Source: Candidatus Sumerlaeota bacterium | GTDB taxonomy: Bacteria > Sumerlaeota > Sumerlaeia > MWCT01 > JAUWMI01 | Direction: 5' to 3' | DNA: 64,000 nucleotides | NCBI GenBank assembly: GCA_030613245.1 | Contig: JAUWMI010000003.1 | Location: 65,062-129,061 of the forward strand | Shown: in pieces, positions 18,208-52,193 of the stretch | Layout: each line of letters opens with the position of its first letter | Position numbering within the stretch: the stretch's first letter is position 1 | Program-made: the position numbers and the translations under genes | The notes under the pieces: generated by a model | The model's input: only the letters and a program-made list of their open reading frames with translations | Told to the model about the DNA's origin: nothing | Databases searched by the model: none

Positions 18208-19068
18208 GCTGTCACCTCCCTATTTGTTGTATTGTGTTTTCCTCTTCTGTAAACTCCTAGAGGAACTCAAGAAACCATATTCTGACTAGCAGACTTAAGA
18301 TTTTTGTGCAAGGGAAATCTTGCCTTTTCCTGGGTAGTTACCGCATTTTTTGCAAAGCGCCCCTTAAGAGTCCTTGCGTAGATATCAGGGATTCATTTGT
18401 ACATAGTTGAAGATGGTCATATAAATGACATTTTGGCTAGTTTATAAATTGTTCGAAACGGAAGAGAGAAGAAGTCAGGAATCAAAAGGAGGCTCCTTAA
18501 GGCAAGCGGTATGAGGCTTATAGTGCTGGACCATAATCCTCAAGCGTGAATTCTTACGCCAATAAGGTAATGGCAGAAACCGGTGTTGATATTTCAACGC
18601 ATCATTCAAAGAAGGTTTGAGATTGTTGTGGCAAAGAAAAAATAATTTGAGTAATCGTTATAGTCATAGTGGCACTGTCCCTGATAGCGTGTTTGTGGTT
18701 CAGGCTTCGCTCCCGGCCAAATCGCCTTAGGCTTCTTCAGATACACGCAAACCGTTATAATTTTTATGCCATGTTGCGCCGAGGGAAATGGCTATTGCTT
18801 TTCGCATAAATAAACAAAGCCGCTGAAGGCCTTATTCTTGTGCGAATGCTTGGTGTTAAACTGTGCCATTCAACGTGGCACGGGCATCACGCCACAGGCG
18901 CATTTTCAACTTGCCAGTGTAGATTCATCCGCCTGGGCGGATGCCACACATCGAACAAAAAGAGATTCTTGGGATTCCATAGTTGGTAGTTGTAGGGGCG
19001 TTTAATTAAACGCCCCTAACATGCTGTACCGTTATCTATACAAATCTCGATAAGATAGGACGCGGCTT

Positions 19069-19986
19069 ATGAATAGAGCCCAATTGAGCATCGTTACCGG
19101 GGCTTTTGGGTATACTGGTAAGTACATAACCCGGCGGCTTCTCGAAATGGGCGAAAGGGTGAAAACCATCACCGGCCACCCTAACAGGCCGAATCCTTTT
19201 GGTGGCGAGGTAAGTGCGGCGTCATTTAATTTCGACAAACCCGCAGAATTGGTCAAGAGTCTTGAAGGAGCCGCAACTCTGTACAACACCTACTGGATCC
19301 GCTTCACCTACAAGCGAGTCACCTTTGATCAAGCCATCCAGAACACTCTTACTCTGTTTAAAGCAGCCCGGGAGGCTGGGGTACAGAGGGTTGTCCATTT
19401 CAGCATTACCAATCCCAGTGAGGACTCGCCACTGCCTTATTTCAGGGGGAAGGCGATTCTGGAAAAGGCGCTTATTGATTCCGGCTTGTCTTACGCTATC
19501 ATCAGGCCAGCCGTGATATTCGGTCTCGAGGATATTCTGATCAATAACATCGCCTGGTTTCTACGGAAGTTTCCGATATTAACTGTACCCGGCTCTGGGA
19601 AATATCAACTTCAACCGGTCTACGTTGAGGATGTGGCGGACATAGCTGTTAGCGCAGGTCATCGGAATAAAAACAGCATCATTGATGCAGTCGGCCCGGA
19701 AACATACTCCTACAATGATTTGGTCAAACTCATTGCGGAGACAATAGGCAGCACGGCTCGCATCATTCACGTGCCACCACGCCTGGCGCTTGCTCTTGCC
19801 AAGGTTCTGGGTTTCATCGTGCGCGATATGGTATTGACGCGGGAAGAAGTCGACGGCCTGATGCAAGGCCTTCTGGTATCCAGGGATCCACCAACCGGGA
19901 AAACGTATTTAAGCCAATGGCTAAAGCAGAACGCAGATATAATTGGACGTCAGTATGCTTCCGAAGTGGATCGGCATTACCGATGA
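19069..19986 (+). CDS. NAD(P)-binding NmrA/SDR-like epimerase/reductase
   Basis: Rossmann motif TGAFGYTG at the N-terminus. ~305 aa, NmrA-like. Confidence 0.6.
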   Translation: MNRAQLSIVTGAFGYTGKYITRRLLEMGERVKTITGHPNRPNPFGGEVSAASFNFDKPAELVKSLEGAATLYNTYWIRFTYKRVTFDQAIQNTLTLFKAAREAGVQRVVHFSITNPSEDSPLPYFRGKAILEKALIDSGLSYAIIRPAVIFGLEDILINNIAWFLRKFPILTVPGSGKYQLQPVYVEDVADIAVSAGHRNKNSIIDAVGPETYSYNDLVKLIAETIGSTARIIHVPPRLALALAKVLGFIVRDMVLTREEVDGLMQGLLVSRDPPTGKTYLSQWLKQNADIIGRQYASEVDRHYR

Positions 19987-20002
19987 GAAGGCGCCCACAC
20001 AA
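19688..20002 (+). repeat. 315-bp direct repeat, left copy (3' end of the NmrA-like gene)
   Basis: About 93% identical to 21612..21925. Together they flank a low-GC 1.6-kb segment. Confidence 0.8.
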
Positions 20003-20180
20003 GGTGGCATAACAGTGTGCTGCCAGGTCTGGGGATCTTCGGTGCCGTCCTAGCAACTAGGAGGGTTTGTTGGGTGGATTTGTTTTTTTTAACTGAAGGG
20101 CCATCATGGATGCATAGACTGATCGCTGTACTGCGGAGTTCGCCAGCCCGTACTCTTCAGATAACATAAGGAGATATAAC

Positions 20181-21410
20181 ATGAAAACCGTCAATCTTAT
20201 GATTTCCCTTCTTCTCTTATCTATCATGGCATCGGCTACTTTTTCAGCTGCTAAAGCTGAATTTGTGATTACTCAGCAAGATGAGGATGATATGATTAAG
20301 TTTGCAGAAGAACTTCGCGAATGGGCGCATTCGAAGTATGAACCTGATCTTTCTTCTTCGGTTGCTCATTTTATTCCTTTTGATGAGTTACAGAAATGCG
20401 ATGCATATAACAAGCTTATTGAATATGACTGGAAACTTGTTCCCTACCAGATTAGAAAAATTCAAATCGAAAATGAATTAAGGGTTATTATAGGTTCGGC
20501 ATTAGCTAATAGGGCCATTGAAAGTCTCGAAGATCTGTATAATTATCAAGGAGAAAAATTGCCAGGATTGTCCGAGGAGATTGCTATGCGGTTTCCTGGA
20601 AGATTGCTTTACCAAACCACAGTTGGCAAAGAGGTTTGTCAGAAGCTAGGGAGAAAGCCGGATCGTGCCGGGTTCTCGTGGATTGAGTGGTGGGGGGAGA
20701 ACAAAGACAGATTTAAATTCAAGACTAAGAAGCGCTTTAAGATCGGCACCCAATATAAATATTTCAATCACCCTCATGTTTCGACAGTACAACATGGGGG
20801 CCTTTTACATTTAGAGGCCGTTAATGCAACTTATCGGCAGATCATAGAGCGTGCAGCAGCTGAATTAGGAGTGAATGTGTTTATAGGGGAGCAGATAGAC
20901 ATAGACGTTATTTGTACGGTAAGAATGAGATCGGTAACCTTTGAAGAATTTGCATATCTCATTGGGCGAACGGTCCATGTAGGAGGGTTCAAATATTACA
21001 AGGATGGCAATAAGTATCATTTTGGAAGTGAGGTTGAGGCTAAGCCACGGGAAATCCTTGATGGTTGGGGTATAATGATGAATAGAACGGTGTTCTACGA
21101 AGGAGATACGATACCTGTGACGGTTATAACAAGAGGCACTGGAGAGTTAGTTGATCCATTAGATCGTGTATTTTATGACTATGGGAGTTTCAAAATTACG
21201 ACTAATAACGGCACAATAATTAGAGATTATAACATTCAAAGGAAAACAAAACCAACGCTGGAACTGATAAATAGAGAAAAAGATTGCACCAAAATTGATC
21301 TCAATTTGAGCAACTATTGTCAACTTCCGCCGGGCGAATACAATGTTAGGTTAAAGTATCTTTCGCATGAAACCCCATCTATTGCAATTGAGATTTATAG
21401 AAGAAAGTAA
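20181..21410 (+). CDS. Hypothetical secreted protein (409 aa) encoded on the low-GC insert
   Basis: Signal peptide MKTVNLMISLLLLSIMASATFSAAKA. AT-rich codon usage unlike the neighbours. No recognisable domain. Confidence 0.55.
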   Translation: MKTVNLMISLLLLSIMASATFSAAKAEFVITQQDEDDMIKFAEELREWAHSKYEPDLSSSVAHFIPFDELQKCDAYNKLIEYDWKLVPYQIRKIQIENELRVIIGSALANRAIESLEDLYNYQGEKLPGLSEEIAMRFPGRLLYQTTVGKEVCQKLGRKPDRAGFSWIEWWGENKDRFKFKTKKRFKIGTQYKYFNHPHVSTVQHGGLLHLEAVNATYRQIIERAAAELGVNVFIGEQIDIDVICTVRMRSVTFEEFAYLIGRTVHVGGFKYYKDGNKYHFGSEVEAKPREILDGWGIMMNRTVFYEGDTIPVTVITRGTGELVDPLDRVFYDYGSFKITTNNGTIIRDYNIQRKTKPTLELINREKDCTKIDLNLSNYCQLPPGEYNVRLKYLSHETPSIAIEIYRRK

Positions 21411-21611
21411 GGAGATTGACGCGCATCATCTAAGACGAGTTTTGTGGCTCAGTTCGTTTACCTAGATCGCGACTTTATCGATACTAAGAAAAGCCCCAAG
21501 CCCATGAGAAGCCAAGAAGCAAGTAGGGTCCTTGGTCAATCCTATGGCCAAAATGGAAGCTCAGGTAATGACCTGTTTGTCTAATTGGGTTAGCATCGAA
21601 AACTTGTAATA

Positions 21612-21925
21612 CAGGCGGCCCGGAAACATACTCCTATAATGATTTGGTCAGGCTCATTGCGGAGACAATAGGCAGCACGGCTCGCATCATTCACGTGCCG
21701 CCACGCCTGGCGCTCGCTCTTACCAGGATTCTTGATTTTATCGTGCGGGATGTCGTCTTGACGCGGGAAGAAATCGACGGCCTGATGCAAGGCCTTCTCG
21801 TATCCAGGGATCCACCAACCGGGAAAACGTATTTAAGCCAATGGCTAAAGCAGAACGCGGATATAATTGGACGTCAGTATGCTTCCGAAGTGGCTCAGCA
21901 TTACCGATGAGAAGGCGCCCACACA
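21612..21925 (+). pseudogene. Duplicated 3' fragment of the NmrA-like gene (right direct repeat; 88-aa in-frame remnant at 21644..21910)
   Basis: The remnant translates to ...LIAETIGSTARIIHVPPRLALAL...GRQYASEVAQHYR, about 90% identical to the C-terminus of 19069..19986. Confidence 0.75.
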
Positions 21926-21947
21926 ATCCGCCATAAAGGCGGGTCTC

Positions 21948-23558
21948 TCAGTTTGTCCTTCTTGAAATCCGCCGAATTGCCGCGTCAAGCACGGTATCCG
22001 TTTCACCGATAAAGTCAGTGGGCACTGGTTCCAGAAGAACATCCGGCTGAATGCCATTCCCATCGTAGAGTCTTCCGTTCGGGCGGAATGACGCCATCGA
22101 CGACAGATAAATGCTGATGAGGGAATTGCGCAGTCGGTATTTGACCCTGCAGCCGCTCCCACCCCCACTGGGCAGACCCATCAAGGTGACGTTCTTCCAG
22201 CCCTTGAAAGCCCCGAGGAAGATATCGCAGGCGCTGAAATTCCATCGGTCCATTAAAATCACCACTGGCTTGTCGTAGTGAAAGTATCCCTGGTCGCGAA
22301 AAGGACTGATGACAAAATAGTGCCATTCCCTGAACTCTCCTTCCGGAAGCACCCACTCCGGCTCAAAGGTCGAGGCAAACTGCTTGATGACCGCTCGCTC
22401 GGCCTCGGACCAGCGCGGTGAAGAGGCTGGATAGAGGTAGCGATCTTCGAAGGCCTCTTTCCTGTCTTTTACACCAAGGCGGTATGCAGCGACATTGACG
22501 ACACGAGGTAAGTCGTTTTCGGCCAGGAAAAACGGAAAGAGCACTCGCAGCGGTGCGCGGCTACCGCCGGAGTTTGTTCTGATGTCAATGATAAGGCCAT
22601 CCGTCTTCGCAAAACGGTTCATCGTTTCGACAAGATCATCGAGGAATTCGGGTTCTGCCAGCATAAATACGAACCGCAGATAACCTATATTCCCCGGCAA
22701 GATGCGACTTTCAACCCGAATGTCTTTCCACTGCTTAATGGGATTTTTATTTCGCGGCCAGAAACCGTAAACAGGTCCCTTCTTCACCAACGGCAATTCA
22801 ATTTGCTTGCTTGCTGCACCATCGGCTGATTCCAGCTCTACCTGTATGGCCCCTAGCTTGTTTATGCCGAGTTCCTTTCGCAGACACTCGACGTACCGGA
22901 GGTTTCTTATCGAATGGTACCGTACATACTGGGGCGAGCCCTGGGCCACCAACCTTCCGGCAGCCTCCAGCCACGCCTCCATCGGCACACCATCCATGCC
23001 TCTAAGAAATGGAAAATCCGAGTCAACGAAACCTGATCGGTCCGGCTTAAAAGCCACCAGTCGTCCGCCTGATTCTTCAACCAGAAACGGCAAAAACTCT
23101 GTACATAAAGTTTTTAGATGAACGAATGAACTTGAGATCTTACTATGTCCGTCTCCGAACAAGGCAATGAATTTCGTCAGTTGGTAGCCGAAGTCGCCCA
23201 AGCTGATGCCATCGCCCAGGGCACCCCTGATGCTGTCCAGAGATCCCCGATAATCCACCCCTTTAAGGTCCCGGTAGGAATATCTATTCTCAATAAGCCA
23301 TTCAAGTTCATCCAGATCTTTCTCTGCCTCTCTTCGCGAGAGAAGCGTTGTGTAGACGGGATGGCGGGAAGAAGAACCTATTCGGCCAGTCAGATACTTG
23401 TCTTTTTCACGGACGTAATTGTCGTGCTTTCGATGTACTCGCCCTGTGATGCTGTGGCAAGCCGTCAACAAGCACATCAACGCCAGTGCCATTATGAAGC
23501 ATCGCACGATGCTGGCAAACGTACCCGAGGGATGCCTCTTACCCGAAATAGAATCCAT
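21948..23558 (-). CDS. S41 family peptidase (C-terminal processing/tail-specific protease-like), lipoprotein
   Basis: Lipobox LLTAC after MDSISGKRHPSGTFASIVRCFIMALALMC. S41 motif IDIRTNSGGS. Confidence 0.6.
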   Translation of the reverse strand: MDSISGKRHPSGTFASIVRCFIMALALMCLLTACHSITGRVHRKHDNYVREKDKYLTGRIGSSSRHPVYTTLLSRREAEKDLDELEWLIENRYSYRDLKGVDYRGSLDSIRGALGDGISLGDFGYQLTKFIALFGDGHSKISSSFVHLKTLCTEFLPFLVEESGGRLVAFKPDRSGFVDSDFPFLRGMDGVPMEAWLEAAGRLVAQGSPQYVRYHSIRNLRYVECLRKELGINKLGAIQVELESADGAASKQIELPLVKKGPVYGFWPRNKNPIKQWKDIRVESRILPGNIGYLRFVFMLAEPEFLDDLVETMNRFAKTDGLIIDIRTNSGGSRAPLRVLFPFFLAENDLPRVVNVAAYRLGVKDRKEAFEDRYLYPASSPRWSEAERAVIKQFASTFEPEWVLPEGEFREWHYFVISPFRDQGYFHYDKPVVILMDRWNFSACDIFLGAFKGWKNVTLMGLPSGGGSGCRVKYRLRNSLISIYLSSMASFRPNGRLYDGNGIQPDVLLEPVPTDFIGETDTVLDAAIRRISRRTN

Positions 23559-27655: not shown

Positions 27656-29776
27656 CTACATGATGGGAAGGTTGCTGTTTTTGATTATCACTGTATCAAG
27701 GAAAAGGCTTCCAGTCTCTGCATCGATGCCGCCAAAGTTGAGCAGGTCGAATGAGAACTTCATCCCGGGATTTGGGCCGGTGATTGCACTTTCCGGCGGG
27801 ATGAAGTAGAGGGAATATGTCATGCCGGCAGGCGTCGGCGACGATTCAGCGTTGTCAGCGCTGTTAATCACCAGTCCGCAGGACTGCTGGAGATTATTCG
27901 TATTCATGCGCAGTCGGATGACCGGCACGAGCGCCTTGGGGGTAATGTCCGTCCACACGGTAAAGTCAACACGATAGATTTTGCCAGATTCCACCAGGAT
28001 CAGCGGACTGAGCCAGAAGCCGAAGTTGTTCTCATTAGAAGTGATGGCAATCTCAAGACTGCCAGTCGTGAATCGGCCTTCTGGTGAGGAGAACGTAGGC
28101 TCGGCGGCGCCGAAACTCCAGCCTTCGTCGGTCTCGTCAAAGGTAAAACTCTCTACGGGGGAGAAAGAGGGGATGTCGCTGAGGCTCCGCTTCTCGATAA
28201 TTATGTTATCGAGACTCAGAGTACCATAGGAGGCGTTAGCGGGATCAAAATTGAGCATATCAAACGCAATATAAAGGTCCGTTGGCACACTGGTAGGAGG
28301 GAACAGGTACATTTGGTAGGATGTCCCTAAAGGGGTAGGGGAGCAATCGGCAGTGTTTGCGCTTTCAATGAGAAAGATGCTGGCGGTTTGGTTATTTATT
28401 TCACCAAGGCGCAAGCGCAGCGTGGGAACCATAGCGGGAGTGAACAGATTGGTCTTAACGAGGCAAGTAGCCTGATACAGCGAATCGGTTGTTTTAGCAA
28501 AAGCATGTTCGGGGCTTTGCCAGAAGCCAAAAGTGTCAGTGTTTGTATTAGATATGAGCAGAATCTGGCCTCCAAAGGCATCAACGCCTGGCATCGAGAA
28601 GACGCCGGGCACGCCGCCAGTGGCCCAGCCTTCGCGGCCAGCATCAAACCCCGCACCATATACGCGGCTCTCGTTATAATACAGAGCCTTGAGCGAGCCA
28701 CTAAATGTGCCAAATTCTCCTCCACCCGTGGTTTCGCTGAACTCTCCCGTGAGCGAACCGTAGAGGAAAAGTCCCTTAAACGTACCAGTAGCCTCGGTTG
28801 AAAAGAGCAGGGCATCCATCTGGCGAGTGGATGAGGAGGTGCCTGGTCTTACGTTGCCCAGCACTACTCCTCGCATAGTTCCCTGCTCGGCATAGTCTGA
28901 CATGAAAAACTTTCCTGCGGTGAAGCCTCTGTCTTTCTGTGACGATGTGGGGTCAATAACAACGAAGGAACAGAGCTCAACTTCAAAGCGACCGGGCATA
29001 ACACCCAGGTCGCCGCCTGTGATTGTGCCGCTGTGAGACATGTTGACTTCCAGGGTTACGTTCGGAAACTCTGTGGTGGTGAGAGGGAAATCCGCGCTTC
29101 CATCAGGCGGGACAAACTGCACCATGTTCGTTCCGTTTTGTATTTCGAAGTCACTTGCCCGCGGCGCAGTAACCTGGCCAGTCTGTACAGCATACTCGGC
29201 GCTTGTGACAATATCGTCATAGAAAGAGCCGTTGAGCACGCCGGAAAAACTTGCCGAGCCTAACGACGAATATTCTCCATCCAGTCTGGCCACGAGCGTT
29301 TGACTTGTCAGGGCACCCGTTGCCCAATCCGGATCGCCCACCAACCATCCCTGAATTTGCGTATGGTTGTGCACATCAGCCACGAATAAACCCGAGACCT
29401 CTTCGTTAGTGTCGCCGTCATAGCTGAACGTTCCAACCGTAAATCCACGGCCTGAGAGATTGTTCATCGCGGTATCAATGACCAAAAAGGAGTAGCGCAC
29501 CAGAAACGCGCCTGGATGTGTGCCTGATGCTGCCAGACTGAGTGTATAGCCGGCGCTGACCATCGCGCTGTCATCACTGATCTCCAGCGTGAGATTCTCC
29601 CTCGTAAACTGGGCAACCGTGTCGTTGAGATTGAGCGATAGAAATGAGGTACTGCCCGGTGTTGCGGTGCCGCTCACCTGATTCGCGATTGGCGTATTAT
29701 CTGCGTGCGCCGCAGAGAGGCACAGCGCGCATAAAAACAGAGCAATCGAGCGGAGTTTCATCAGCTTCTCCTTCAC
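27656..29776 (-). CDS. Secreted protein (706 aa) with two C-terminal copies of the same uncharacterised ~165-aa domain found in 3631..5457
   Basis: Signal peptide MKLRSIALFLCALCLSAAHA. C-terminal repeats contain EGWATGG/EGWSFG...TNTDTFGFW / SNENNFGFW...LNFDPANA / LNFGGIDA. Confidence 0.7.
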   Translation of the reverse strand: MKEKLMKLRSIALFLCALCLSAAHADNTPIANQVSGTATPGSTSFLSLNLNDTVAQFTRENLTLEISDDSAMVSAGYTLSLAASGTHPGAFLVRYSFLVIDTAMNNLSGRGFTVGTFSYDGDTNEEVSGLFVADVHNHTQIQGWLVGDPDWATGALTSQTLVARLDGEYSSLGSASFSGVLNGSFYDDIVTSAEYAVQTGQVTAPRASDFEIQNGTNMVQFVPPDGSADFPLTTTEFPNVTLEVNMSHSGTITGGDLGVMPGRFEVELCSFVVIDPTSSQKDRGFTAGKFFMSDYAEQGTMRGVVLGNVRPGTSSSTRQMDALLFSTEATGTFKGLFLYGSLTGEFSETTGGGEFGTFSGSLKALYYNESRVYGAGFDAGREGWATGGVPGVFSMPGVDAFGGQILLISNTNTDTFGFWQSPEHAFAKTTDSLYQATCLVKTNLFTPAMVPTLRLRLGEINNQTASIFLIESANTADCSPTPLGTSYQMYLFPPTSVPTDLYIAFDMLNFDPANASYGTLSLDNIIIEKRSLSDIPSFSPVESFTFDETDEGWSFGAAEPTFSSPEGRFTTGSLEIAITSNENNFGFWLSPLILVESGKIYRVDFTVWTDITPKALVPVIRLRMNTNNLQQSCGLVINSADNAESSPTPAGMTYSLYFIPPESAITGPNPGMKFSFDLLNFGGIDAETGSLFLDTVIIKNSNLPIM

Positions 29777-30821: not shown

Positions 30822-31460
30822 TCATTTCCGTGTTTTGCGCTTGCGCTGATGCCGAGTTGTCTCTTCCTCCTTCTTGCCTTCCGCTTCCTCGAGGCTCTTT
30901 TCTATTCTCCCAAATTTTAATATCCCGGTCTGAAGACCCAATGAGGTAAGAAATATAGGCAAAAAGAGGAGCTGAATATGATAATAGTCCCAGCTCGACA
31001 GAATGAACAAAGTTCCCACCAATGCTGTAATCGTAATGATAGCATAGCGGCTCAGGCGAGCAACAATAATTGCGGTCAACAAGCCGCACGCTGCTTGCAG
31101 CAACACTCGTGCGCCCAGTGACTCAAACGTCGCCACATGCTGTTGCACAAGATAACGCGTAAGGAATCCACCACCCAATACACCCAGACATGCGCCGATA
31201 AAGAAGAAAAAGATTACATGCAGTCGCTTGAACAGGAAAATGCCGAGTAGCATGCCAATGATTGCCCCGCCCAGAATCACCCAGACAGCGTATTGTTCCA
31301 CTGAAAAGATTAAAGCAAGACCTAAACCGCCTGACGCACCGAAAAGTAGGCCGATGACCACACCCGAGAGCTTTACGCCAGCCCAGTAAAGCGTCCAACC
31401 AAAACAACAGAGGGCAAGCCCGATTATTAAAGGTAACGGCTGCGGGAGACTTAGCGGCAT
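30822..31460 (-). CDS. Hypothetical integral membrane protein with charged C-terminal tail
   Basis: Five or six TM helices. The C-terminus is EEAEGKKEEETTRHQRKRKTRK. Confidence 0.5.
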   Translation of the reverse strand: MPLSLPQPLPLIIGLALCCFGWTLYWAGVKLSGVVIGLLFGASGGLGLALIFSVEQYAVWVILGGAIIGMLLGIFLFKRLHVIFFFFIGACLGVLGGGFLTRYLVQQHVATFESLGARVLLQAACGLLTAIIVARLSRYAIITITALVGTLFILSSWDYYHIQLLFLPIFLTSLGLQTGILKFGRIEKSLEEAEGKKEEETTRHQRKRKTRK

Positions 31461-31821
31461 TCTCGTGCACAGTATCTAGGCAGTTCAGCTACGAATCCTC
31501 AGGTCAACAGGAATTTCTGTTGAATTCCAATACGGGTTATTAGATAAAGGAACTGCTCATCAAAGTCTACAATAATTTTTTCCGAGTGCGCCCAAAGGTT
31601 ATGACTTGGACATGTTGTGAGCGGTTGGCTTCCTGTCTTCAAAGGGGGCACTGTCATCAAAGAATATGCCCGGCTGAATACGGTGGGAACATAAGTCTTT
31701 GTTCAAACGGGCGAGTTAATTGATCAATCACTCTCTTCTGAGAGCAATGTTTGAGAGATTTGCGTCCTCTCTGTGATCTGGCGCCACAGGAATTTATCGA
31801 AAACTTTAAGGTGGGTTTAAA

Positions 31822-32265
31822 ATGGGTGAGAAGGAGAATTTGGTTAGTAGGCGTAGTTTTCTTGCGTGGCTATCGGCGGGCGCTTTTTCCTTGATGAGCG
31901 GCTTTGCAGCCTTTATTGGCTTAGGTTTTCTCTACCCTGTGAAAAGGCAAAAGCCCCCGGCATTGTTTGTCTGCCTCGAGTCGGAGGTGCCACTGGTTGG
32001 AGAGGCGCTTGAGATTAGGGATCTGAAAGGGCGCAAGGTTTTCCTTATGCGCAAGGCCGATGGGGAACTGATAACAATAGGAACGGTCTGCTCCCACCTT
32101 GGCTGCACGGTGTTCTATCGTCCGAAAAAGAAAAGGTTCGAGTGTCCTTGCCATGATGGTGTCTTCGATGGAGAAGGTAATCCGGTATCTGGACCTCCGA
32201 GTAGACCTCTTGAGCGTTATCCGACGGAGGTACGCGAAGGCAAGGTATTTGTTCATTTTGCATAG
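31822..32265 (+). CDS. Rieske [2Fe-2S] subunit of a cytochrome bc-type complex, Tat-exported
   Basis: Twin-arginine SRRSFLAW. CSHLGCTV...CPCHDGVF Rieske boxes. Confidence 0.85.
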   Translation: MGEKENLVSRRSFLAWLSAGAFSLMSGFAAFIGLGFLYPVKRQKPPALFVCLESEVPLVGEALEIRDLKGRKVFLMRKADGELITIGTVCSHLGCTVFYRPKKKRFECPCHDGVFDGEGNPVSGPPSRPLERYPTEVREGKVFVHFA

Positions 32266-32274
32266 GGGTAAATA

Positions 32275-33354
32275 GTGGAGAAACAAGACCGCGAGCGTTG
32301 GGTAAGGGCTTTCCCGATTGACATCAAGAGTCTTTATGAGAAAGCGGACGAGTCGCTGCCGCATTCTGCCAAAAAGTGGTGGTGGTGCTGGGGCGGCATT
32401 GTAGGGCTGCTTTTTGTATTGCAGGTGGTGACAGGTCTTCTATTTGGTATGTATTATCGTGACGAACCAGAGACCGCATATCAATAGTTGGCCTTTATAA
32501 CCGAGCATGAGCGCTATGGGCAGTTTCTGCGATCTGTCCACCAATGGGGCGCGACGTTCATGATCGTCTTTTTGCTCCTGCACATGCTCAGGGTGTTTGT
32601 GACAGGAGCATATCGTGCATATCGCTGGGGAGCTTGGATCGCTGGCGCGTGCCTCCTGGGACTGACGCTCGGTATGGGCTTTACTGGGTATTCCCTTGTT
32701 TACGAGCAGATCAGCTACTGGGCGATCACCGTCACATCCAATATAATTACAAGTGTGCCGCTTGTTGGCGGAATGCTCAAACACCTTTTTCTCGCAGGAG
32801 ATGAGATAAACACTGCCACACTAAGTCGCTTGTACGCTTTGCACGTGCAGATCCTTCCCGCGGGTATAGCTTGTCTTGGGATTATCCACTTATTTTTTGT
32901 GCGGCTTTTGGGGATGTACATGCCGGGGAATCAGAAGGACCGGGATGAGGAAAAAAATATCACCGCTCGCGAGGGAGTCTATCATTTCTTCCCTGACCAT
33001 GCTCTAAGTGAGATTGCAGTGTTCCTTTACTTGGTCCTGGCAATCTGCCTATTGTCGCTGTTGTTTCCCGCTAAGATGGGATCGCCAGCGGATCCGCTCA
33101 TCACCCCGGAGCACATCAAACCAGAGTGGTACTTTTACCCGTTCTTTCGCTTGTTAAAACTTGTCCCCGGAACTGCGGGAGTGATTATAATGGGGTTGAT
33201 CGCTGTGGCTTTCGTTTTATGGCCGATTTTGGATCAGTACGTGTTCCAGAAAGTTGATAAGGTATTCAAGGGACGGATGGAGGTAAGTCTGTTAGTAGGA
33301 TTTCTTGTTATACTTGTGTATCTCTGGTGGGCTGTGGTTGAAGCAATAGGTTAA
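32275..33354 (+). CDS. Cytochrome b (b6 plus subunit-IV-like, fused), interrupted by a single in-frame TAG at 32485..32487
   Basis: Helix A (…WWWCWGGIVGLLFVLQVVTGLLFGMYYRDEPETAYQ) then TAG. The same frame then continues LAFITEHERYGQFLRSVHQWGATFMIV... and later reaches PEWYFYPFFRLLKLVPG, a PetD-like motif. Confidence 0.7.
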
Positions 33355-33471
33355 GAAGGCAAAAGAAGGAAGTGGATAATTTGATATTTCAAAATCAAGA
33401 AGTTGGAATTGCATTGCTGACTGTTGATTGCTAAAGAACATAACCCACAAATTCTTTTCGGGGAGGAAAGG

Positions 33472-35076
33472 ATGAGTCTGAAAGCTAAAGAGATTATCAT
33501 TGCGGCTTTATCGATTGCGATCGTGGCTGTTCTCGCATTTGTGGTCTTTACTGAGAAGGCACACGTACTTAAGGAGCGGAAGATTGTGGTGAAGCCAGAC
33601 TCGGCCGGATGCGTAAGGTGTCACGGCTATAAAGACGAAAAGGGACTGCCCGGAAGGGATCCAGGAATCGTTAAGCATTGGGAGGCAAGTATGCATGCTG
33701 AGCAGGGGGTAGGGTGTTTTGATTGTCACGGTGTACCTCCTGCCGGAGGCGGAGAGGATATCTTAAACCCGCGTTACGTCGTACAAACTTCGTGGGACAA
33801 GGAAAGTGGTCTTAAGGCGGTTCAGCTGGTCGTAAAGAACGGTAAGCCTGTTGAACGACCTGATATCTGGAAACACGAAGGTGCACAAATTGTAGCGGAC
33901 GTGTCTCCGCGCACCTGTGCGCGCTGCCACGAGAAGGAAGCGGAACAATTCTTTAATTCGCGGCATTCCTCGGCGGCGCAGTTCATAGGATCCATAGACA
34001 ATTTTCTTGGACGTTTTGCCGAAGGTCCTGCTGCGGCAAATACCGGCTGCCAGCAATGCCACGGCGGCGTGACACGCTTGGTTTCTATGGATTTTAAGGA
34101 AGGCGCGACACCGCTTTATGCCCCCGATACATGGCCTAATACCGGTGTGGGACGCGTAAATCTTGATGGTTCATGGGGTTCGTGCAGCGCATGTCACTCG
34201 CGCCATGAGTTCTCTTCCGAAGTAGCCAGACGGCCTGAAAACTGTGGGAAATGTCATATGGGTCCAGATCATCCCCAGTTTGAAATATACAACGAGTCAA
34301 AACATGGCATAGCATTCAGGAAGAATGAACGATTGATGAACCTGGATCTGCCAGGAGGCGAGTGGGTTTTAGGAAGGGATTACTCGCAAGCTCCGACTTG
34401 CTCGACCTGCCACATGGGGCCAGTTGCTCAGCACGGGAACTATTCGGGACTCAGCCTGACCCACGATGTAGGTGCACGCATCTCATGGACACTTCGTCCC
34501 GTCATTTCGTTTCAGCCAAAGGCGATCATTGCCCCGGATGGCACGGTTATTCTTAAAGATCCGAAGGATCGCAGAGCTGAAATGAAGCAGGTGTGCCTGA
34601 ACTGTCATTCAGACAATTGGGTGAATAACTTCTACGTTCAGTTTGACCAGGCGGTTGAACTTTACAATGAAAAATACGCCAAGCCTGCATCTGCCATCTA
34701 CAAATATCTCCAAGAGGAAGGCATGGTAGATGCTGTTCCTATGAATGAGGAAATAGAATATGTCTTTTTCGAGCTCTGGCATCATGAGGGACGCAGGGCG
34801 CGCCACGGAGCAAGTATGATGGGCCCTGATTTCGTGCAGTGGCACGGCTTTTATGAACTCAGTAGAAACCTCTATACACATTTTTTGCCTCTGGCAAAAG
34901 AGCTTGCTGAAAAAGCCGGCAAAGGGGAGAAGATGGAGAAATTCATCCAGGAGATGCTTCGCGGGCCGGAGGGCAAGGACTGGGAAAAATACCATCGCTG
35001 GACCGAGGGTTTGACTACCGAAGAGATGCAGGGGATGCTGGAATGGGAACGAAAAATGTATGAGATTCGGAAATAG
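33472..35076 (+). CDS. Membrane-anchored octaheme c-type cytochrome, hydroxylamine-oxidoreductase (HAO)-like
   Basis: ATG at 33472 after GGGGAGGAAAGG. N-terminal TM anchor. Eight CxxCH motifs (CVRCH, CFDCH, CARCH, CQQCH, CSACH, CGKCH, CSTCH, CLNCH). ~535 aa. Confidence 0.7.
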   Translation: MSLKAKEIIIAALSIAIVAVLAFVVFTEKAHVLKERKIVVKPDSAGCVRCHGYKDEKGLPGRDPGIVKHWEASMHAEQGVGCFDCHGVPPAGGGEDILNPRYVVQTSWDKESGLKAVQLVVKNGKPVERPDIWKHEGAQIVADVSPRTCARCHEKEAEQFFNSRHSSAAQFIGSIDNFLGRFAEGPAAANTGCQQCHGGVTRLVSMDFKEGATPLYAPDTWPNTGVGRVNLDGSWGSCSACHSRHEFSSEVARRPENCGKCHMGPDHPQFEIYNESKHGIAFRKNERLMNLDLPGGEWVLGRDYSQAPTCSTCHMGPVAQHGNYSGLSLTHDVGARISWTLRPVISFQPKAIIAPDGTVILKDPKDRRAEMKQVCLNCHSDNWVNNFYVQFDQAVELYNEKYAKPASAIYKYLQEEGMVDAVPMNEEIEYVFFELWHHEGRRARHGASMMGPDFVQWHGFYELSRNLYTHFLPLAKELAEKAGKGEKMEKFIQEMLRGPEGKDWEKYHRWTEGLTTEEMQGMLEWERKMYEIRK

Positions 35077-35130
35077 TCGTCGCTTGCAGTATGATAGCGT
35101 GTCTTCATTCTACAGATAGGAGGAGAGGAT

Positions 35131-36780
35131 ATGAACATGTTTTGCTACCAATGTGAACAGACAATGAAGGGAACAGGATGCACTGTGCGCGGGGTATGTG
35201 GAAAAGACGCTGAAACCGCAACGTTGCAAGATCTGCTGGTGTACGCGACAAAAGGTATCTCTATGTACGCACACAGGGCCAGGCAATTGGGTGTAAAGGA
35301 CCGCGAGGTTGACGTCTTTACCGTAGAGGCATTGTTTTCCACGGTCACCAATGTCAATTTCGATCCAGAGCGCTTACGTGACCTGCTTAATAAGGCGGCT
35401 GAGCTGCGGGGCAAGGCGCAGAACCTCTATGAGGAGGCATGCCGAAAAACCGGCGGTACACTCGTGACGCTTACAGGCCCAGCGGCCTGGATGCCGGCCA
35501 GCGATCTCGATGGTCTCATCAGGCAGGGCGAAGAGGTCAGCATCCAGAAGCGCAAGGAGAAGCAGGGCGACGATATCACTGGTCTCCAGGAGCTTATCGT
35601 CTACGGTCTCAAAGGAGCGGCTTCTTACGCCGACCACGCCCAGATACTTGGAAAAGAAGACGAAAGTGTATACGCGCTTTTCCACAAGACGCTGGACTTT
35701 CTCACGAAAGATAGCCCGAGCATTGATGAACTTCTCGCCACAGCTCTCAAGGTTGGCGAGCTCAATCTCAAGGTGATGGAACTGCTGGATGCAGTCCATA
35801 CCGGCACCTACGGGAATCCGATACCTACTCGGGTGCGTATAGAGCCGGTTAAGGGGAAGGCGATTGTCGTGTCTGGTCACGACCTTAAGGATCTCGAGGA
35901 GTTGCTCAAGCAGACCGAGGGCAAAGGAATCAATATCTATACTCACGGCGAGATGCTACCTGCGCACGGATATCCAGAGTTAAAGAAATACAAGCATCTT
36001 GTGGGCAACTACGGCGGCGCCTGGCAAGATCAGCAAAAGGAATTCGCCGAGTTCCCAGGGCCTATCCTGATGACCACCAATTGCATTCAGAAGCCGCGAG
36101 AGAGCTATAAGGAGAGAATATTCACGTGCGGACTCGTTGCATGGCCCGGGGTAGTTCACATCGGCAACCGCGACTTTAGGCCGCTAATCGAGGCTGCGCT
36201 GGCGGCCGAGGGATTTAAGGAGGACGGTCCGGAAAAGACCATCATGGTCGGCTTTGCTCATGATGCAGTCCTGGGTGTGGCCGACAAGGTCGTCGAGGCG
36301 GTCAAGAGCGGTGCCATCAGGCACTTTTTTCTCATCGGCGGCTGCGATGGGGCCAAGCCAGGGCGCAATTATTATACCGAGTTTGCCCAGGCAGTCCCGG
36401 AGGACTGCATCATCCTGACGCTGGCCTGCGGCAAGTATCGCTTCAACAAATTGGAGTTCGGGGATATCGGCGGCATTCCGCGTTTGCTCGACGTAGGTCA
36501 GTGCAACGATGCCTATTCGGCCGTTCAGATTGCTCTTGGGTTGGCGAAGGCGTTTAACACTGACGTGAATGGTCTGCCGCTTTCTTTCGTGATTTCCTGG
36601 TACGAGCAAAAGGCAGTCAGCATTCTGCTCACATTGCTGCATCTGGGCATCAGGGACATCCTCCTCGGGCCAAGCCTGCCCGCGTTCGTTACTCCGCCAG
36701 TGCTCAAGGTTCTGGTCGAGAAGTTCAACATTATGCCAATCTCAACAGTGCAGAAGGACCTGGGCGCGATTCTGGGTTGA
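35131..36780 (+). CDS. hcp: Hybrid cluster protein / hydroxylamine reductase
   Basis: MNMFCYQCEQTMKGTGCTVRGVCGKD N-terminal Cys cluster. 549 aa. Full-length Hcp architecture. Confidence 0.9.
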   Translation: MNMFCYQCEQTMKGTGCTVRGVCGKDAETATLQDLLVYATKGISMYAHRARQLGVKDREVDVFTVEALFSTVTNVNFDPERLRDLLNKAAELRGKAQNLYEEACRKTGGTLVTLTGPAAWMPASDLDGLIRQGEEVSIQKRKEKQGDDITGLQELIVYGLKGAASYADHAQILGKEDESVYALFHKTLDFLTKDSPSIDELLATALKVGELNLKVMELLDAVHTGTYGNPIPTRVRIEPVKGKAIVVSGHDLKDLEELLKQTEGKGINIYTHGEMLPAHGYPELKKYKHLVGNYGGAWQDQQKEFAEFPGPILMTTNCIQKPRESYKERIFTCGLVAWPGVVHIGNRDFRPLIEAALAAEGFKEDGPEKTIMVGFAHDAVLGVADKVVEAVKSGAIRHFFLIGGCDGAKPGRNYYTEFAQAVPEDCIILTLACGKYRFNKLEFGDIGGIPRLLDVGQCNDAYSAVQIALGLAKAFNTDVNGLPLSFVISWYEQKAVSILLTLLHLGIRDILLGPSLPAFVTPPVLKVLVEKFNIMPISTVQKDLGAILG

Positions 36781-36933
36781 TATGCTAGATGAGGACTAGC
36801 GGGCAAACGGAGGATACGTCTTCGGGAGAAAGTTTCTATAGTGCCCCACCTGTGGGAACTACTTGCTTTAAAGCCACGGAGGCACGGAGACACAGAGTTA
36901 GGCAACAAGGAAATTTTATAATAGGAGGATGTT

Positions 36934-37752
36934 ATGAGAAAAGCCGTGTATTTGTTCATTGTTGCAGTGATGGCCATGGGGCTGAACATTCATGGGCAAA
37001 CAGTACCCTTGAAGATCAACTATCAGGGAGTCGTGCGTGAAGGAACACAGTTGCTCACAGGCAATGGCGAGTTCCGTTTTGCTATTCTGGACAATGGGAC
37101 GCCACAGATGATTCTCTGGTCGAATGATGGCTCCAAGGACGGTCTTGAGGCGAGCGTGGGAAATGTGCCGACGGATCCGGTTACCTTGGCTGTCAAGGAC
37201 GGCATCTATAGCGTAGCTCTTGGTGACACGGACGTAACCAATATGACGGAAATTTCAGCGCCGGTGTTTCGTGACAACTCGCAGACATTCCTGCGCGTTT
37301 GGTTCAACAAGCCCGGAGGTACGGCGGAACTAATGCAGCCGGATGTGCAGCTAGTCAGCGTACCCTATGCCTATAGGGCTGGTTCGGTGGATTTGGTGAT
37401 GCCGCAAAATGTGGGCAGGGGCAACACGGTCAAGTCAGTTTATTTCGACATTAATACTGGCGCGCTCAACAAGGTGATCTATACCGTGCCCACTGAGAAG
37501 ACATTCGTTGTCACGGACATTTTCATTACCTCTTCTGAAATCGGGCCTTTATGGCAATTTCGGAACAGGAATTCTACCTTGGACGTCTATCTCAAATTTA
37601 TGATTGATGCACAGACCGATGGCTTGAACAATTTTATGCTACAGTTCAAGGCCGGGATTCTTTTTGAAGGGGACGACGTGATCACGATTCGCCAGACAAA
37701 AACAGGTGATGACCGCCGGATTATCGGCGTGATCTCGGGATTTGAATTCTGA
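36934..37752 (+). CDS. Hypothetical secreted protein (272 aa)
   Basis: Signal peptide MRKAVYLFIVAVMAMGLNIHG. Followed by a terminator. Confidence 0.5.
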   Translation: MRKAVYLFIVAVMAMGLNIHGQTVPLKINYQGVVREGTQLLTGNGEFRFAILDNGTPQMILWSNDGSKDGLEASVGNVPTDPVTLAVKDGIYSVALGDTDVTNMTEISAPVFRDNSQTFLRVWFNKPGGTAELMQPDVQLVSVPYAYRAGSVDLVMPQNVGRGNTVKSVYFDINTGALNKVIYTVPTEKTFVVTDIFITSSEIGPLWQFRNRNSTLDVYLKFMIDAQTDGLNNFMLQFKAGILFEGDDVITIRQTKTGDDRRIIGVISGFEF

Positions 37753-37820
37753 GTTCCGGAACCAGACAGGATTGGAAAGCGCGCATCAGGCAATACTTGA
37801 TGCAGTGAGAGGTAATCTCA

Positions 37821-37850
37821 AGCGGAGCGATTTATGCTCCGCTTTTTTTT
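37821..37850 (+). terminator. Rho-independent terminator
   Basis: agcggagc-gatttat-gctccgct followed by T8. Confidence 0.8.
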
Positions 37851-38044
37851 GATGGTTTCAGCAGATTCGCTTGACTTTTATACAATCCAGATATCGTATA
37901 TTGAGGCAAGGCATTGTGAAACTCTGGATAAAGAGTGTGCCCGCTGGCGTACCTCGTACCGGAAGAATACACCTGGCCACCGGGCGTTCATGGTGCCGTA
38001 AGCTTCAGTGTCTGGCTAAGTGATGCCACATTTCTGATCGGATT

Positions 38045-41000
38045 TTGAAGAAAACACTAATGAATTCAGCAGAGCAGAAGAAGGTCTCCTCGCAGCACGG
38101 CTTTTCGCGCGCTGATCTTGTAAACGGACTTATCTTGTTCGCGATTCCCTTCTTGCTCTTCCTGCCCACCGTGTTACGCAATCAGATTCCCTACTTCATG
38201 GACATCGTCACGCAATTCTATCCTGTCAGGATGTTTGCTGCGCACCTGCTTCATCAGGGCGAAATGCCGCTATGGAATCCGACCTATTACTGCGGCGTAC
38301 CGCTTCTGGCGAATCCTCAATGGGGAATTCTCTACCCCGGCAACGTTCTGTTCTTTCTTTTTCCCGCAGGGTGGAGCTTTACCGCAACGCTGGCGCTTCA
38401 CTCCGTGATCGGTAGCTGGGGTCTATACCTTCTGGCGAAGCATGTTACACAGAACCGTTACGCTGCGATGCTGGCAGCGCTGCTCTACCTGCTCGGTGGG
38501 TATACGTGGGCACACTATGCCTTTGGTGCATTTCTGCTCACGCTCGCCTGGGTGCCGTTCGTCTATTTCTGGTTTGAGCGGTATATGGAGACGCGACGCG
38601 GTTTGTACGTGCTGGCCGCAGGAGTTGGTCTGGCATTGCAGATTCTCTCGGGCACGCCGCAGATTACCTACTATGCCATGTTGAGCTACCTGGTGCTGGT
38701 TGTGGTGCGAGGTGTGGGGGAGTGGCGTGGGGGGAAGGGTCTGGCAGGACTTAAGCAGCCACTAATATTCTTTGGCGGAATGTGCGTAATCGGGCTTGGA
38801 TTGTCAGCGCCGCAATGGCTGGCCAGTCTAAAATTTCTTACGGAGTGTGAGCGCTCTGGTGGGTTGAGCTTGCATGAAGTAAAAACAGGGACACTCTCGC
38901 TTAGCCAGCTCTGGTGCGCGTTCACCGGCGGAACAAGTTGGCCTGAGGATGCAGAGACAACCGCGTATATTGGGCTTTTTCCTCTATTCCTGGCGATTTT
39001 CGGAGCGTTGGCATGCCGACATCGCGCATTGCGGGGATACCGCATAATTGCTTTTGCGAGTATTCTCTTCCTGCTGAGCTCACTCAGCGGCTTTTTCTAC
39101 CAATGGTTTCCTCTCTATCGGCATTTTCACGATCCCAAGCGGGTGCTTGGAATCCTGATGATTGTCGTGAGCTTGCTCGCAGCATGCGGGATGTGCCGGG
39201 TGTGGGAACTGTTTTCCCGTGGCTGGCCCAGAGAACGCTTCTGGGTTTCTGTTGGCGGCGCAATGCTCTTGGTTCTCTTTGTTTTGGAGGCAGTTTGGCG
39301 TCGTGGTGAATTTGCATCGAGCACCATGCTAGCCGGCAGCCAGGTGCTAGGATGGATTACGATGTCGGCCTCGGTGATTCCTATGTTGCTGGATATTCAA
39401 CGGGTTCTAGTTAGCATTGCAGTGCTGGTGCTGCTGCTATGGTGTTTTTGGCTGAAGAGGCTAGTTTCTCCTGTATTTCCCATTCCTCTTATGGCGTTCT
39501 GCATCATAGTGTTGGTCTTTTTATTTTCGTACCCAGTGGTGATTAAGGGGCTGAATCTCATCGTCGTTGGCGCAGGCATTGTATTGGTTATGAATCTATG
39601 GATCAGGAGAGAAGAGGGTCCACTTTCTGCTGTATTGATCCTCATTCTTGTGGCGGTCTCGACTATGGTGTTTAGCTTTGGAAGGATTGACCTAAAGTTC
39701 ATAGGCGCACAGGATCTCTTCCAGCGTACTTCCCTCAGCGAGCCGATTTTTATTTCAGACACTCAAAGCCGATTTCTGAGCTATGATGAGGGCATTCACT
39801 ATTCGTACGATTATACGAGAGCTGGTTTTGGAGAACGGCTGTTGCCGAATCTGGGTTCGTATTTCGGCCTGAAGGATTTTCAGGGCTACGATCCTTCGAT
39901 TCCTCGCCGCTATGCTACATATCTCAAACTGGTCAACCGCGGATTTGTTCGTCTCTATACAAAACATTTTGGTATCGTGCGGAATCTCGGCTCGCCACTA
40001 CTCGATCGGGCCAACGTACGCTATGTCATTGGCGATGCAGATTCGTATGTGCCGTTCATGCAGGCGGCAAAAGTAAAGGAAGGGGAGCCGCTAGACGTGC
40101 GGCTGGAAATGCCAGGGCCGTTTTCCGCTATTACGCTGTGGGCTGTTGCGTTGCCATACTTTTATATTACAAAGGGTCAGGAAGTTGGGAGTGTTAGTTG
40201 CTATGCAGATGGTAGATTGGTAGAGCGATTTCCCCTGCGCTTTGGCGTTGAAGCTGGTGGCAGAGGGATGGGTGGATACCGAGTCGAGAAGTTGATTAAT
40301 CAGGACGACACCCGGTTTTGTGACTTTATCAGGGATCGAGGGGTTCCGTTTTTTGCGACCAGGTTTCTTCTGCGCCCTGCGAAATCACTGAGCCAGGTTG
40401 CTGTTGAGTGGACGTGGGCGCGGGGGAGTAATCTCTTGGTGAAACAGATCACTCTTCGACCCGTGGCATGGGCAGAAGCTGTGAAGCTGGTCAGAGAAGA
40501 GCGTAACACAACGCCGTGGGACACCTGGCGGCTTCGGCTCTATGAGCGAAAGAATATTTTGCCGCGAGTGCAAATGGCCACCCAGCTTATTCATGCTGCT
40601 TCGCCTGAGGAGGCCGCGCAAAAACTTGCCGCGCTGGGCGCTGGCCAAGATTCTACTGTAATCGTAGAAACTAAAGCTCGCGACGAAGCTCTGCCTTCAC
40701 AACTTGGGAACGGGAAAGTATTACAAACCACATACAAAACGAATAGAGTGGACATCAAAGTGGAATGCGACGAACCGGGTGGATTTCTTGTGCTTCGCGA
40801 TGCATTCTTTCCGGGCTGGAGAGCGACAGTTGACAATGCGCCCGCAAAGATTTATCCTACAGACCTCATGTTCCGGGGTATCATGATCCCGAAAGGGGTG
40901 CATTCTGTACGATTCGTGTATCGTCCCAAAGAGATTGTATACGGATTTGTTCTCGTACTTGTAACGCTAGGCGGGATTGTTTTGTCTATCCTGCGTTCAA

Positions 41001-50026: not shown

Positions 50027-50322
50027 CACCGCGAACGGCGCTTACCGGACGCCGGTCTAACGCGCCGATGAGGTGGCTATTCGTGAAGTTAATACGCAAT
50101 GCGTTACCGGGGCACCGGGAAAGCCCCAAACAAATTATTGGCAAGCTATTTTGTTAATTCGTCCTTTAAGAGCCCGGGCTTTTTACCTCTCCTTATTGGC
50201 CCTTTTTTTCTTCTTTCTGGTTTGAATTTGTAACTTCGGATTAGCCTTTTCGCCGCCTTCTTCTTCCCACTCTTTACTGCTTTCATTTGTAACCTCCTGT
50301 GTGAAAATCTAAGAAGCAAACC

Positions 50323-51189: not shown

Positions 51190-51369
51190 TTACTGCTATG
51201 CGTACCACTTAATGCAAACGAGCGTTCCTTTTCCAACGCACTCAGGAAACCTGACCAATTTTGGCGGGTGAAAAATAAAATATGCAATAGCACACAGAAC
51301 CACCACGACTAGGGAAGTGACCAGCACAGTGCAAGCGCGGTCCTAGTAGTTCATTTTGCTCTACTCCTT

Positions 51370-51930: not shown

Positions 51931-52193
51931 TTCGCCCGCTTCTTTCCGATTCATCATAGTTTCCATTCTCTCTTGCGAATCGTATCAATAAGCACCTCTG
52001 GTGCGACTTTCTTCAGGCATTTCTGAGCAGTAGCAAATCGTTCATGTCCAGACAGGCCGGGTATAATCGTAACTGCTGTACAACCTCATTTTCTGCAAGT
52101 TGCATATCCTGCCTTAATTTCTTTGCCTAACGTATCAGGTCTGATTTCGCAAATCAAGGCAAACTTGTAAACAATAGACTGCCCAAAATACTG

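Follow-up and report, generated by a model that had tools for sequence, protein, structure and literature searches.

A group of four genes from a Candidatus Sumerlaeota bacterium appears, on the balance of the evidence, to encode a complex-III-like quinol:nitrite oxidoreductase. In this complex, an octaheme cytochrome c would take the place of cytochrome c1/f and reduce nitrite, probably to ammonium, while a hybrid cluster protein (Hcp) would serve as a scavenger. The genes lie in a stretch of 64,000 nucleotides (contig JAUWMI010000003.1, positions 65,062 to 129,061), which is referred to here as the window. The listing of open reading frames (ORFs) and the reading of the sequence both place them on the + strand in one direction: a Rieske [2Fe-2S] protein (31822..32265), a fused cytochrome b (32275..33354), the octaheme cytochrome (33472..35076) and Hcp (35131..36780), with gaps of 9, 117 and 54 nt. 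An earlier note on this DNA had described the same four genes at these positions, as a Tat-exported Rieske protein, a fused cytochrome b, a membrane-anchored octaheme protein resembling hydroxylamine oxidoreductase (HAO) and an Hcp. It had also pointed out that a gene for cytochrome c1/f is missing and had proposed the octaheme protein as the c-type partner of the Rieske/cytochrome b pair. All of these gene assignments are borne out by the analysis given below, and the proposed partnership is supported by it.

By sequence and by predicted structure, the octaheme protein can be assigned to the HAO family, where it is closest to the Ignicoccus octaheme cytochrome c (IhOCC). The longest reading frame begins with a TTG at 33424; the ATG at 33472 has a GGAGG ribosome-binding site and coincides with the start of all homologues. 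The protein matches PF13447 (Multi-haem_cyto) in Pfam with an E of 8e-25. It carries eight CxxCH motifs, every one of which is invariant in 93 homologues and shares its alignment column with IhOCC and with NeHAO, for which the reference sequence used is 100% identical to 4FAS chain A. In the sequence search of the PDB, IhOCC (4QO5) came first, with an E of 4e-42 for the single sequence and of 1e-61 for the family profile over residues 38-466. The HAO-related enzyme HAOr Kustc0458 (6H5L) was matched with an E of 1e-22 and of 1e-29, respectively. Apart from these two, the only significant matches in the sequence and profile searches were Nitrosomonas HAO, the Kuenenia/Brocadia HOX and HDH. Among the NCBIfam models, none is specific for this family; the sole match was a weak one to hydrazine_HDH, at 60 bits against a cut-off of 900.

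The fold gives the same picture. An AlphaFold2 (AF2) model of the octaheme monomer, built from the 93-sequence alignment, reached a predicted local distance difference test score (pLDDT) of 89.7. A first model, built from a 17-sequence alignment, was left unused, as its pLDDT was 59 and fell below 50 in the catalytic core. With the better model, Foldseek found 4QO5 at a TM-score of 0.63 and 6H5L at 0.51, followed by HAO, HOX and HDH at 0.44-0.50. ONR and NrfA were marginal (E above 0.02, TM-score about 0.2), and MccA and Otr had no significant match in either the PDB sequence search or the Foldseek fold search. The earlier note had named clustering with such families outside the nitrogen cycle as the outcome that would speak against its reading; only structures of the HAO family are significant. 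The N-terminus of the model forms a hydrophobic helix (residues 3-33), predicted to be a transmembrane anchor. A further feature is that about 40 residues are inserted between hemes 2 and 3 (…NPRYVVQTSWDKESGLKAVQLVVKNGKPVERPDIW…), at 33739-33870 or residues ~90-133. The insertion is confined to the clade of the window's protein (at least 55% identity) and is modelled as a small beta-sheet with a pLDDT above 90.

The residues around the catalytic heme point to a reductive chemistry. D266-H267 of the octaheme protein, which belong to a GPDHP motif invariant in the family, align with D267-H268 of NeHAO, the distal pair of the catalytic heme. The position of the cross-linking tyrosine of NeHAO, Y467, was checked as the earlier note had suggested; the tyrosine is absent, and the column holds an invariant tryptophan (W457) in the family and a phenylalanine in IhOCC. 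This was read from a MAFFT L-INS-i alignment bridged by IhOCC. The hhalign comparison of the family profile with NeHAO ended at residue 421/405, before the Tyr467 region, so the assignment of this position comes from the multiple alignment only. The absence of the cross-link marks the reductive homologues of HAO (PMC8042395, PMC9250108), and the invariant tryptophan therefore suggests that the present protein is of the reductive type.

The two genes preceding the octaheme gene have all the features expected of a Rieske/cytochrome b pair. The Rieske protein, of 147 aa, matches PF00355 (E 7e-14) in Pfam, and has a twin-arginine signal, SRRSFL, and the cluster boxes CSHLGC and CPCH (within CPCHDG). 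The two arginines and the Cys/His ligands are invariant in 42 homologues. A glycine and a phenylalanine occupy the positions of the serine and the tyrosine of high-potential Rieske proteins, a replacement which we take to mark the low-potential type. This would fit a low-potential donor of the menaquinol type. Cytochrome b matches PF00033/PF13631 in its N-terminal part and PF00032 in its C-terminal part, and is thus a b6-like protein fused to one like subunit IV. The four heme-ligand histidines and the PEWY motif of the Qo site are conserved across 49 homologues, and the histidines of helix D have the b6-type spacing of 15. The cysteine of WCWGG, at the position of heme ci, is kept in 38 of the 49.

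The frame of cytochrome b is broken by an in-frame TAG at 32485-32487, which the earlier note had overlooked. A Logan contig from run SRR12623517 (L081; related loci are referred to by such numbers below) encodes the same octaheme protein, and its sequence starts at position 32483 of the window, just ahead of the stop. Over 8594 nt, the two differ at three positions only: the contig has C instead of A at 32486, G instead of T at 32488 and C instead of A at 32510. The L081 alleles encode Ser, Val and Ala, the consensus residues of the 49 homologues, in which the three sites hold Ser in 48, Val/Ile in all 49 and Val/Ala/Ile in 48. The alleles of the window (stop, Leu and Glu) were never found at those sites among these homologues. 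Since the otherwise identical contig has TCG, for the consensus serine, where the window has TAG, an intact cytochrome b allele exists, and the stop is an artefact or a minor variant. It is probably an assembly or sequencing error, or else a minor inactivated allele. Recoding of the TAG, as pyrrolysine or by readthrough, was also considered and was rejected, again on the evidence of the TCG codon. It was observed that all three differences fall within 25 nt and that the window-specific bases are all G:C to T:A changes. Such clustering suggests a bubble in the assembly graph, damaged reads or micro-heterogeneity.

Apart from the octaheme ORF, no ORF in the whole 64-kb window contains two or more CxxCH motifs, and the window therefore holds no gene for cytochrome c1/f, NapC or NrfH. 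The octaheme protein is the sole c-type cytochrome in the neighbourhood and has a predicted transmembrane anchor, which supports its part as the c-type partner of the Rieske/cytochrome b pair.

The fourth gene encodes Hcp, known as a hydroxylamine or NO reductase. The assignment is firm: NF003658 is matched with 833 bits (cut-off 367), TIGR01703 with 784 bits (cut-off 361) and PF03063 (Prismane) with 586 bits. Its translation has an N-terminal C-x2-C-x8-C-x5-C motif, which we take to define class I. No signal peptide was found in it, and the protein is listed here as cytoplasmic. Two relatives encode, beside hcp, a conserved protein whose N-terminus is a 2x[4Fe-4S] ferredoxin domain and whose length is about 250-260 aa (L094:5816-6568 and L095:11734-12516). 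This protein may be an electron donor of Hcp. No equivalent ferredoxin-domain gene adjoins hcp in the window.

Members of the octaheme family number in the thousands. At least 575 relatives were picked up by pattern scans of the GTDB species genomes, and the JGI metagenomes gave a similar number; the phyla and classes represented include Planctomycetota, Gemmatimonadota, Binatia, Acidobacteriota, Zixibacteria, Latescibacteria, Myxococcota and Nitrospira. The comparison of gene neighbourhoods covered 152 non-redundant loci, whose flanking DNA amounted to 1.56 Mb. In 73 of the 152, from many phyla, a Rieske and/or a cytochrome b gene adjoins the octaheme gene. In the clade to which the window belongs, two orders occur, Rieske-cytochrome b-octaheme and octaheme-Rieske-cytochrome b, and the three genes are always contiguous. 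The loci that lack Rieske/cytochrome b are mostly from Acidobacteriota, and no recurrent neighbour, such as NrfH or NapC, was found in them. As a soft trend, their octaheme N-termini look more like cleavable signal peptides, and those of the linked loci more like a hydrophobic, uncleaved anchor.

The neighbours of the module point to nitrogen oxides. A napA gene is present in 23 of the 152 loci, 22 of which also have Rieske/cytochrome b, and NapA was confirmed by a match of 944 bits, the cut-off being 904. In about 21-23 loci, napA directly follows the module. L040, L061 and about 20 more have Rieske, cytochrome b and octaheme genes and then napA (for example L040:9657-12026); a gene for a four-CxxCH cytochrome of about 198 aa, with no NCBIfam match, often comes after napA in these loci. 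In such relatives, the gene order would make a compact quinol-to-nitrate/nitrite reduction cluster. A Crp/Fnr gene is adjacent in 11 of the 152 loci; amt is present in 5 and an Rrf2 regulator in 4. Further, perfect TTGAY-N4-RTCAA sites occur upstream of the module in L084, L086, L087 and L093, where about 0.02 were expected; these palindromes of the FNR/DNR/HcpR type (TTGACTTAAGTCAA and similar) sit 95-280 nt before the first module gene.

The hcp gene is found in the flanks of 6 non-redundant loci, in five arrangements. Rieske, cytochrome b, octaheme and hcp follow each other both in the window and in L125, whose octaheme protein is 43% identical to that of the window. In L084, hcp stands before the three genes and a Crp/Fnr gene after them. 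L094 has cytochrome b, octaheme, a Crp/Fnr gene, hcp and the ferredoxin gene in turn. L095 and L096 have octaheme, Rieske and cytochrome b, and hcp follows on the opposite strand after about 2 kb; in L075 hcp precedes an octaheme gene that lacks Rieske/cytochrome b. If one hcp per genome of roughly 4 Mb is assumed, about 0.4 linkages would be expected by chance; with five loci besides the window's own, the Poisson P is 5e-5, and the association is thus real, though present in a minority of loci. Taken with napA, amt, Crp/Fnr and Rrf2, it supports the link with nitrogen oxides that the earlier note had proposed from the window.

The manner in which the complex might work can be outlined as follows. 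A quinol, probably menaquinol, would be oxidised at the Qo site of the b6-type cytochrome b. One electron would then pass through the low-potential cluster of the exported Rieske protein to the membrane-anchored octaheme protein, acting as a stand-in for cytochrome c1/f. From there, the chain of hemes would carry it to the five-coordinate heme 4, at which nitrite would be reduced in the periplasm, most likely to ammonium. The second electron would be recycled through the b hemes in a Q cycle, and the reaction would therefore be electrogenic. The co-transcribed class-I Hcp would reduce the hydroxylamine and/or NO that leaks from the periplasmic enzyme into the cytoplasm. That the proteins form a physical complex, that nitrite is its substrate, what it yields, the Q cycle and the part played by Hcp are all inferred. 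As for the substrate, IhOCC has been classed as an octaheme nitrite reductase (PMC9250108).

Several points weigh against this proposal. Cytochrome b is interrupted by a stop in the present assembly, and Hcp is linked in only a minority of the related loci. Among the scanned ORFs of the window, no nap, nar, nitrite-transporter or N-oxide-regulator gene was found, and no FNR-type site lies upstream of the operon. It is also to be considered that bc complexes are dimers. HAO-family enzymes, on the other hand, are trimers (PMC8042395), so the stoichiometry of such a complex is uncertain. The nearest characterised relatives give differing products, namely NO or ammonium. Purified IhOCC and epsilon-Hao are reported to reduce nitrite to ammonium in vitro (Parey 2016 and Haase 2017). 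HAOr, also among the nearest, makes NO from nitrite (PMC8042395). Moreover, no member of the Rieske/cytochrome b-octaheme module has been characterised biochemically (PMC6311188).

An obligate two-step route, akin to a hydroxylamine:ubiquinone reductase module run backwards (reverse-HURM), is the reading of the earlier note, and we regard it as unlikely. According to it, the complex makes only hydroxylamine in the periplasm, and Hcp completes the reduction to ammonium inside the cell. The gene for Hcp is co-operonic in the window and recurrently linked in relatives, and others have suggested such a pathway in Nautilia (PMC3701875) and, for its nap-hao-hcp cluster, in Deferribacter (PMC6896113). 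However, about 67 of the 73 module loci have no nearby hcp, and neither Amt nor any other candidate hydroxylamine importer was found among the scanned window ORFs. The ammonium that purified epsilon-Hao and IhOCC reportedly form from nitrite also speaks against an obligate second step. For the octaheme cytochrome c (OCC) of Nitrospira, the assigned role is to reduce nitrite to ammonia (PMC6311188). A route through free hydroxylamine fits no better than a direct reduction by six electrons in which Hcp acts as a scavenger.

The same low probability is given to a reaction divided between the two sides of the membrane, as an energy-conserving alternative to NrfAH. Here, a complex coupled to the Q cycle would reduce nitrite only partially in the periplasm, to NH2OH or NO, and the neutral intermediate would cross the membrane to reach Hcp. 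If true, this would place nitrite ammonification across the membrane, in Sumerlaeota and in other uncultured phyla.

A little less probable again is an octaheme protein of the HAOr kind that converts nitrite to NO, with Hcp converting NO to N2O, so that the two would form a short branch for detoxification or denitrification. The Hcp of E. coli is an NO reductase of high affinity. HAOr (6H5L), the second-best match in both structure and sequence, makes NO (PMC8042395), and work on Phycisphaerae suggests that such OCCs may replace NirK/NirS (PMC11266412). Nevertheless, IhOCC is the closer relative (profile E 1e-61 against 1e-29, TM-score 0.63 against 0.51). The linkage with napA in the absence of nor/nos and the placement of the Nitrospira module in nitrogen assimilation also fit ammonium as the product (PMC6311188).

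It is distinctly improbable that the module is inactive, with cytochrome b as a pseudogene, or that its octaheme protein serves an acceptor other than a nitrogen compound (for instance sulfite, tetrathionate or metals) and hcp is a chance neighbour. The TAG and the two non-consensus substitutions in cytochrome b are in line with this, as is the lack of N-cycle genes elsewhere among the scanned window ORFs, and multiheme cytochromes are often promiscuous. It is countered by the intact allele on the otherwise identical contig, by the lack of a significant match to MccA or Otr, and by the non-random neighbourhoods with napA, hcp, amt and Crp/Fnr.

A Rieske/cytochrome b complex working in reverse is energetically implausible. 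Oxidation of hydroxylamine to feed the quinone pool, as nitrifiers carry it out with the forward HURM, is hardly credible in spite of the HAO-family membership and the conserved Asp-His pair, since the tyrosine position holds an invariant tryptophan, the cross-link-free HAOr cannot oxidise hydroxylamine (PMC8042395), the window has no amo genes, and the nap and hcp neighbours indicate reduction.

The region upstream of the Rieske gene (31471..31821, read on the + strand) is shared with a divergent gene and is presumed to hold the operon promoter. A scan with the promoter consensus found no convincing sigma-70 match in it, and no palindrome of the FNR/HcpR/CRP type with at most 2 mismatches lies upstream of the operon. 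At 31504-31523, within the divergent intergenic region, there is a 20-bp palindrome, TCAACAGGAA/TTTCTGTTGA. It lies about 300 nt 5' of the Rieske gene, and a membrane-protein gene on the opposite strand (30822-31460) starts about 40 nt away. This palindrome may be an operator. Downstream of hcp, a gene on the + strand (36934..37752) encodes a secreted hypothetical protein of 272 aa, with a signal peptide and no Pfam match. The terminator scan found no strong terminator between hcp and this gene, and the two are possibly co-transcribed. After it comes a hairpin that resembles an intrinsic terminator (37820..37844, + strand), with a 10-bp stem, 6 GC pairs and a following TTTTTT. It is the sole strong non-coding terminator candidate within 31300-38100, and the transcription unit probably ends here; apart from it, the promoter and terminator consensus scans gave matches at chance level. 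Among 164 loci, the 272-aa protein gene is present solely in the identical contig L081, and it is outside the conserved module.

In the rest of the window, there are genes for transporters, peptidases, glycosyltransferases and signalling proteins, and carA is found at 1159-2409. Among the higher-ranked matches of carA, the named ones are all from Candidatus Sumerlaeota, at 63-68% identity, which points to that phylum with moderate confidence. No other nitrogen-cycle genes occur among the scanned ORFs, and the Rfam and tRNA scans found no RNA genes in the window. Three large predicted proteins of 640-760 aa have no Pfam match (27656-29776 on the - strand; 3526-5457 and 11551-13830 on the + strand), and the first of these has an N-terminal signal-like sequence. 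Several glycosyltransferases of the PMT_2/YfhO type were also observed. Both observations fit a poorly characterised phylum. The GC content dips to 0.435-0.476 at 18000-22000 and 50000-52000, compared with about 0.52 elsewhere, and the second of these segments holds an FRG-domain gene (50323-51189). The two segments may have been horizontally acquired.

If the proposed quinol:nitrite oxidoreductase is real, nitrite ammonification in many uncultured lineages would be coupled directly to a proton-motive Q cycle. The classical systems, NrfAH and Nap/epsilon-Hao, are not electrogenic in such a manner. Surveys that count only nrfA, nirK and nirS would overlook this capacity, and they may mislabel the octaheme gene as 'hao' or 'hydroxylamine dehydrogenase', or a gene of the module as 'bc1 complex'. 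The recurrent linkage with hcp further lends independent genomic support to the handling of nitrogen oxides by the octaheme family.

The module itself has been met before. The earlier note had considered it unusual for the lineage, and this does not hold: many phyla have the association (73 of the 152 related loci), and it is already on record in Nitrospira (PMC6311188) and in Caldithrix (PMC5317091). In Nitrospira, the OCC-Rieske/cytochrome b cluster is a putative quinol-linked nitrite reductase that makes ammonia (PMC6311188; Koch 2015 and Ushiki 2018 are reviewed there). Two Nitrospira loci, L073 and L080, match the window in having all three genes and in their order, with an octaheme identity of 42-43%, and the reaction proposed there is likewise a periplasmic reduction of nitrite to ammonia that draws directly from the quinone pool. 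The Nitrospira module, however, lies in a nitrogen-assimilation region (amt, glnB, cynS), is read as assimilatory and has no adjacent hcp. The octaheme protein of the window belongs to a separate clade (mutual identity at least 55-60%), set apart by the insertion between hemes 2 and 3. In Caldithrix abyssi, Rieske/cytochrome b genes stand beside epsilon-Hao in a nap cluster, and direct transfer from the Rieske protein to the octaheme, with generation of a proton-motive force, was proposed (PMC5317091). As in the window, the gene for a Tyr-less HAO-like octaheme protein adjoins those for Rieske and cytochrome b, with no c1 gene. The window differs in having no nap genes in 64 kb and hcp instead.

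IhOCC (4QO5) offers the nearest solved structure. It is also membrane-associated and also lacks a tyrosine at the Y467 position, where it has Phe and the window's protein Trp. It is, however, archaeal, is only about 24% identical to the window's protein, and has Val where the latter and NeHAO have the distal His. No linkage of IhOCC with Rieske/cytochrome b was found in the literature text examined.

The earlier note had also drawn an analogy with anammox bacteria, which stands in so far as Rieske/cytochrome b occurs there with an HAO-like octaheme protein, and is otherwise loose. The R/b-3 complex of Kuenenia stuttgartiensis contains the HAOr-like Kuste4574 and was proposed to be a membrane-bound nitrite reductase (PMC12485887). 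As in the window, a cross-link-free octaheme protein of the HAO family is encoded with a Rieske/cytochrome b complex. The Kuenenia cluster (kuste4569-4574), in contrast, has six genes, with extra subunits that are absent from the window, and its proposed product is NO. Kuste4574 is a close homologue of HAOr, whereas the window's protein matches HAOr weakly (E 1e-22, TM-score 0.51) and IhOCC better than the Kustc0458/Kuste4574 type.

With respect to Hcp, the comparison is with the reverse-HURM (epsilon-Hao, cM552 and Hcp) proposed for Nautilia, a proposal whose authors were unable to rule out that ammonium is formed directly (PMC3701875), and with Deferribacter autotrophicus, where the two-step hypothesis was proposed for a nap-hao-hcp cluster (PMC6896113). 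In Nautilia/Campylobacter and in Deferribacter, as here, a Tyr-less HAO homologue is paired with Hcp to turn nitrite into ammonium, and in Deferribacter hao and hcp share one cluster, as they do in the window. The quinol dehydrogenase of Nautilia and Deferribacter, in contrast, is a tetraheme of the NapC/NrfH type or a decaheme and is not electrogenic. In the window, Rieske/cytochrome b stands in place of NapC/NrfH/cM552, no second multi-CxxCH gene is present, and the octaheme protein is predicted to be anchored in the membrane. The earlier note had seen two ideas combined in one operon, the octaheme/Rieske/cytochrome b complex and the hao-hcp route. The genes do stand together here, but both ideas had already been published, that of hao with hcp in Deferribacter (PMC6896113).

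Mat metagenomes have many Tyr-less hao genes along with many hcp genes (PMC8940962), and a survey of Sumerlaeota reported NrfAH and 'bc1/pet', and not the present module (PMC8092238). No description of all four genes in one operon was found in the literature. The locus is a new example of an already described and widespread module, and not a new system; its value is that of one more well-defined example rather than of a new concept.

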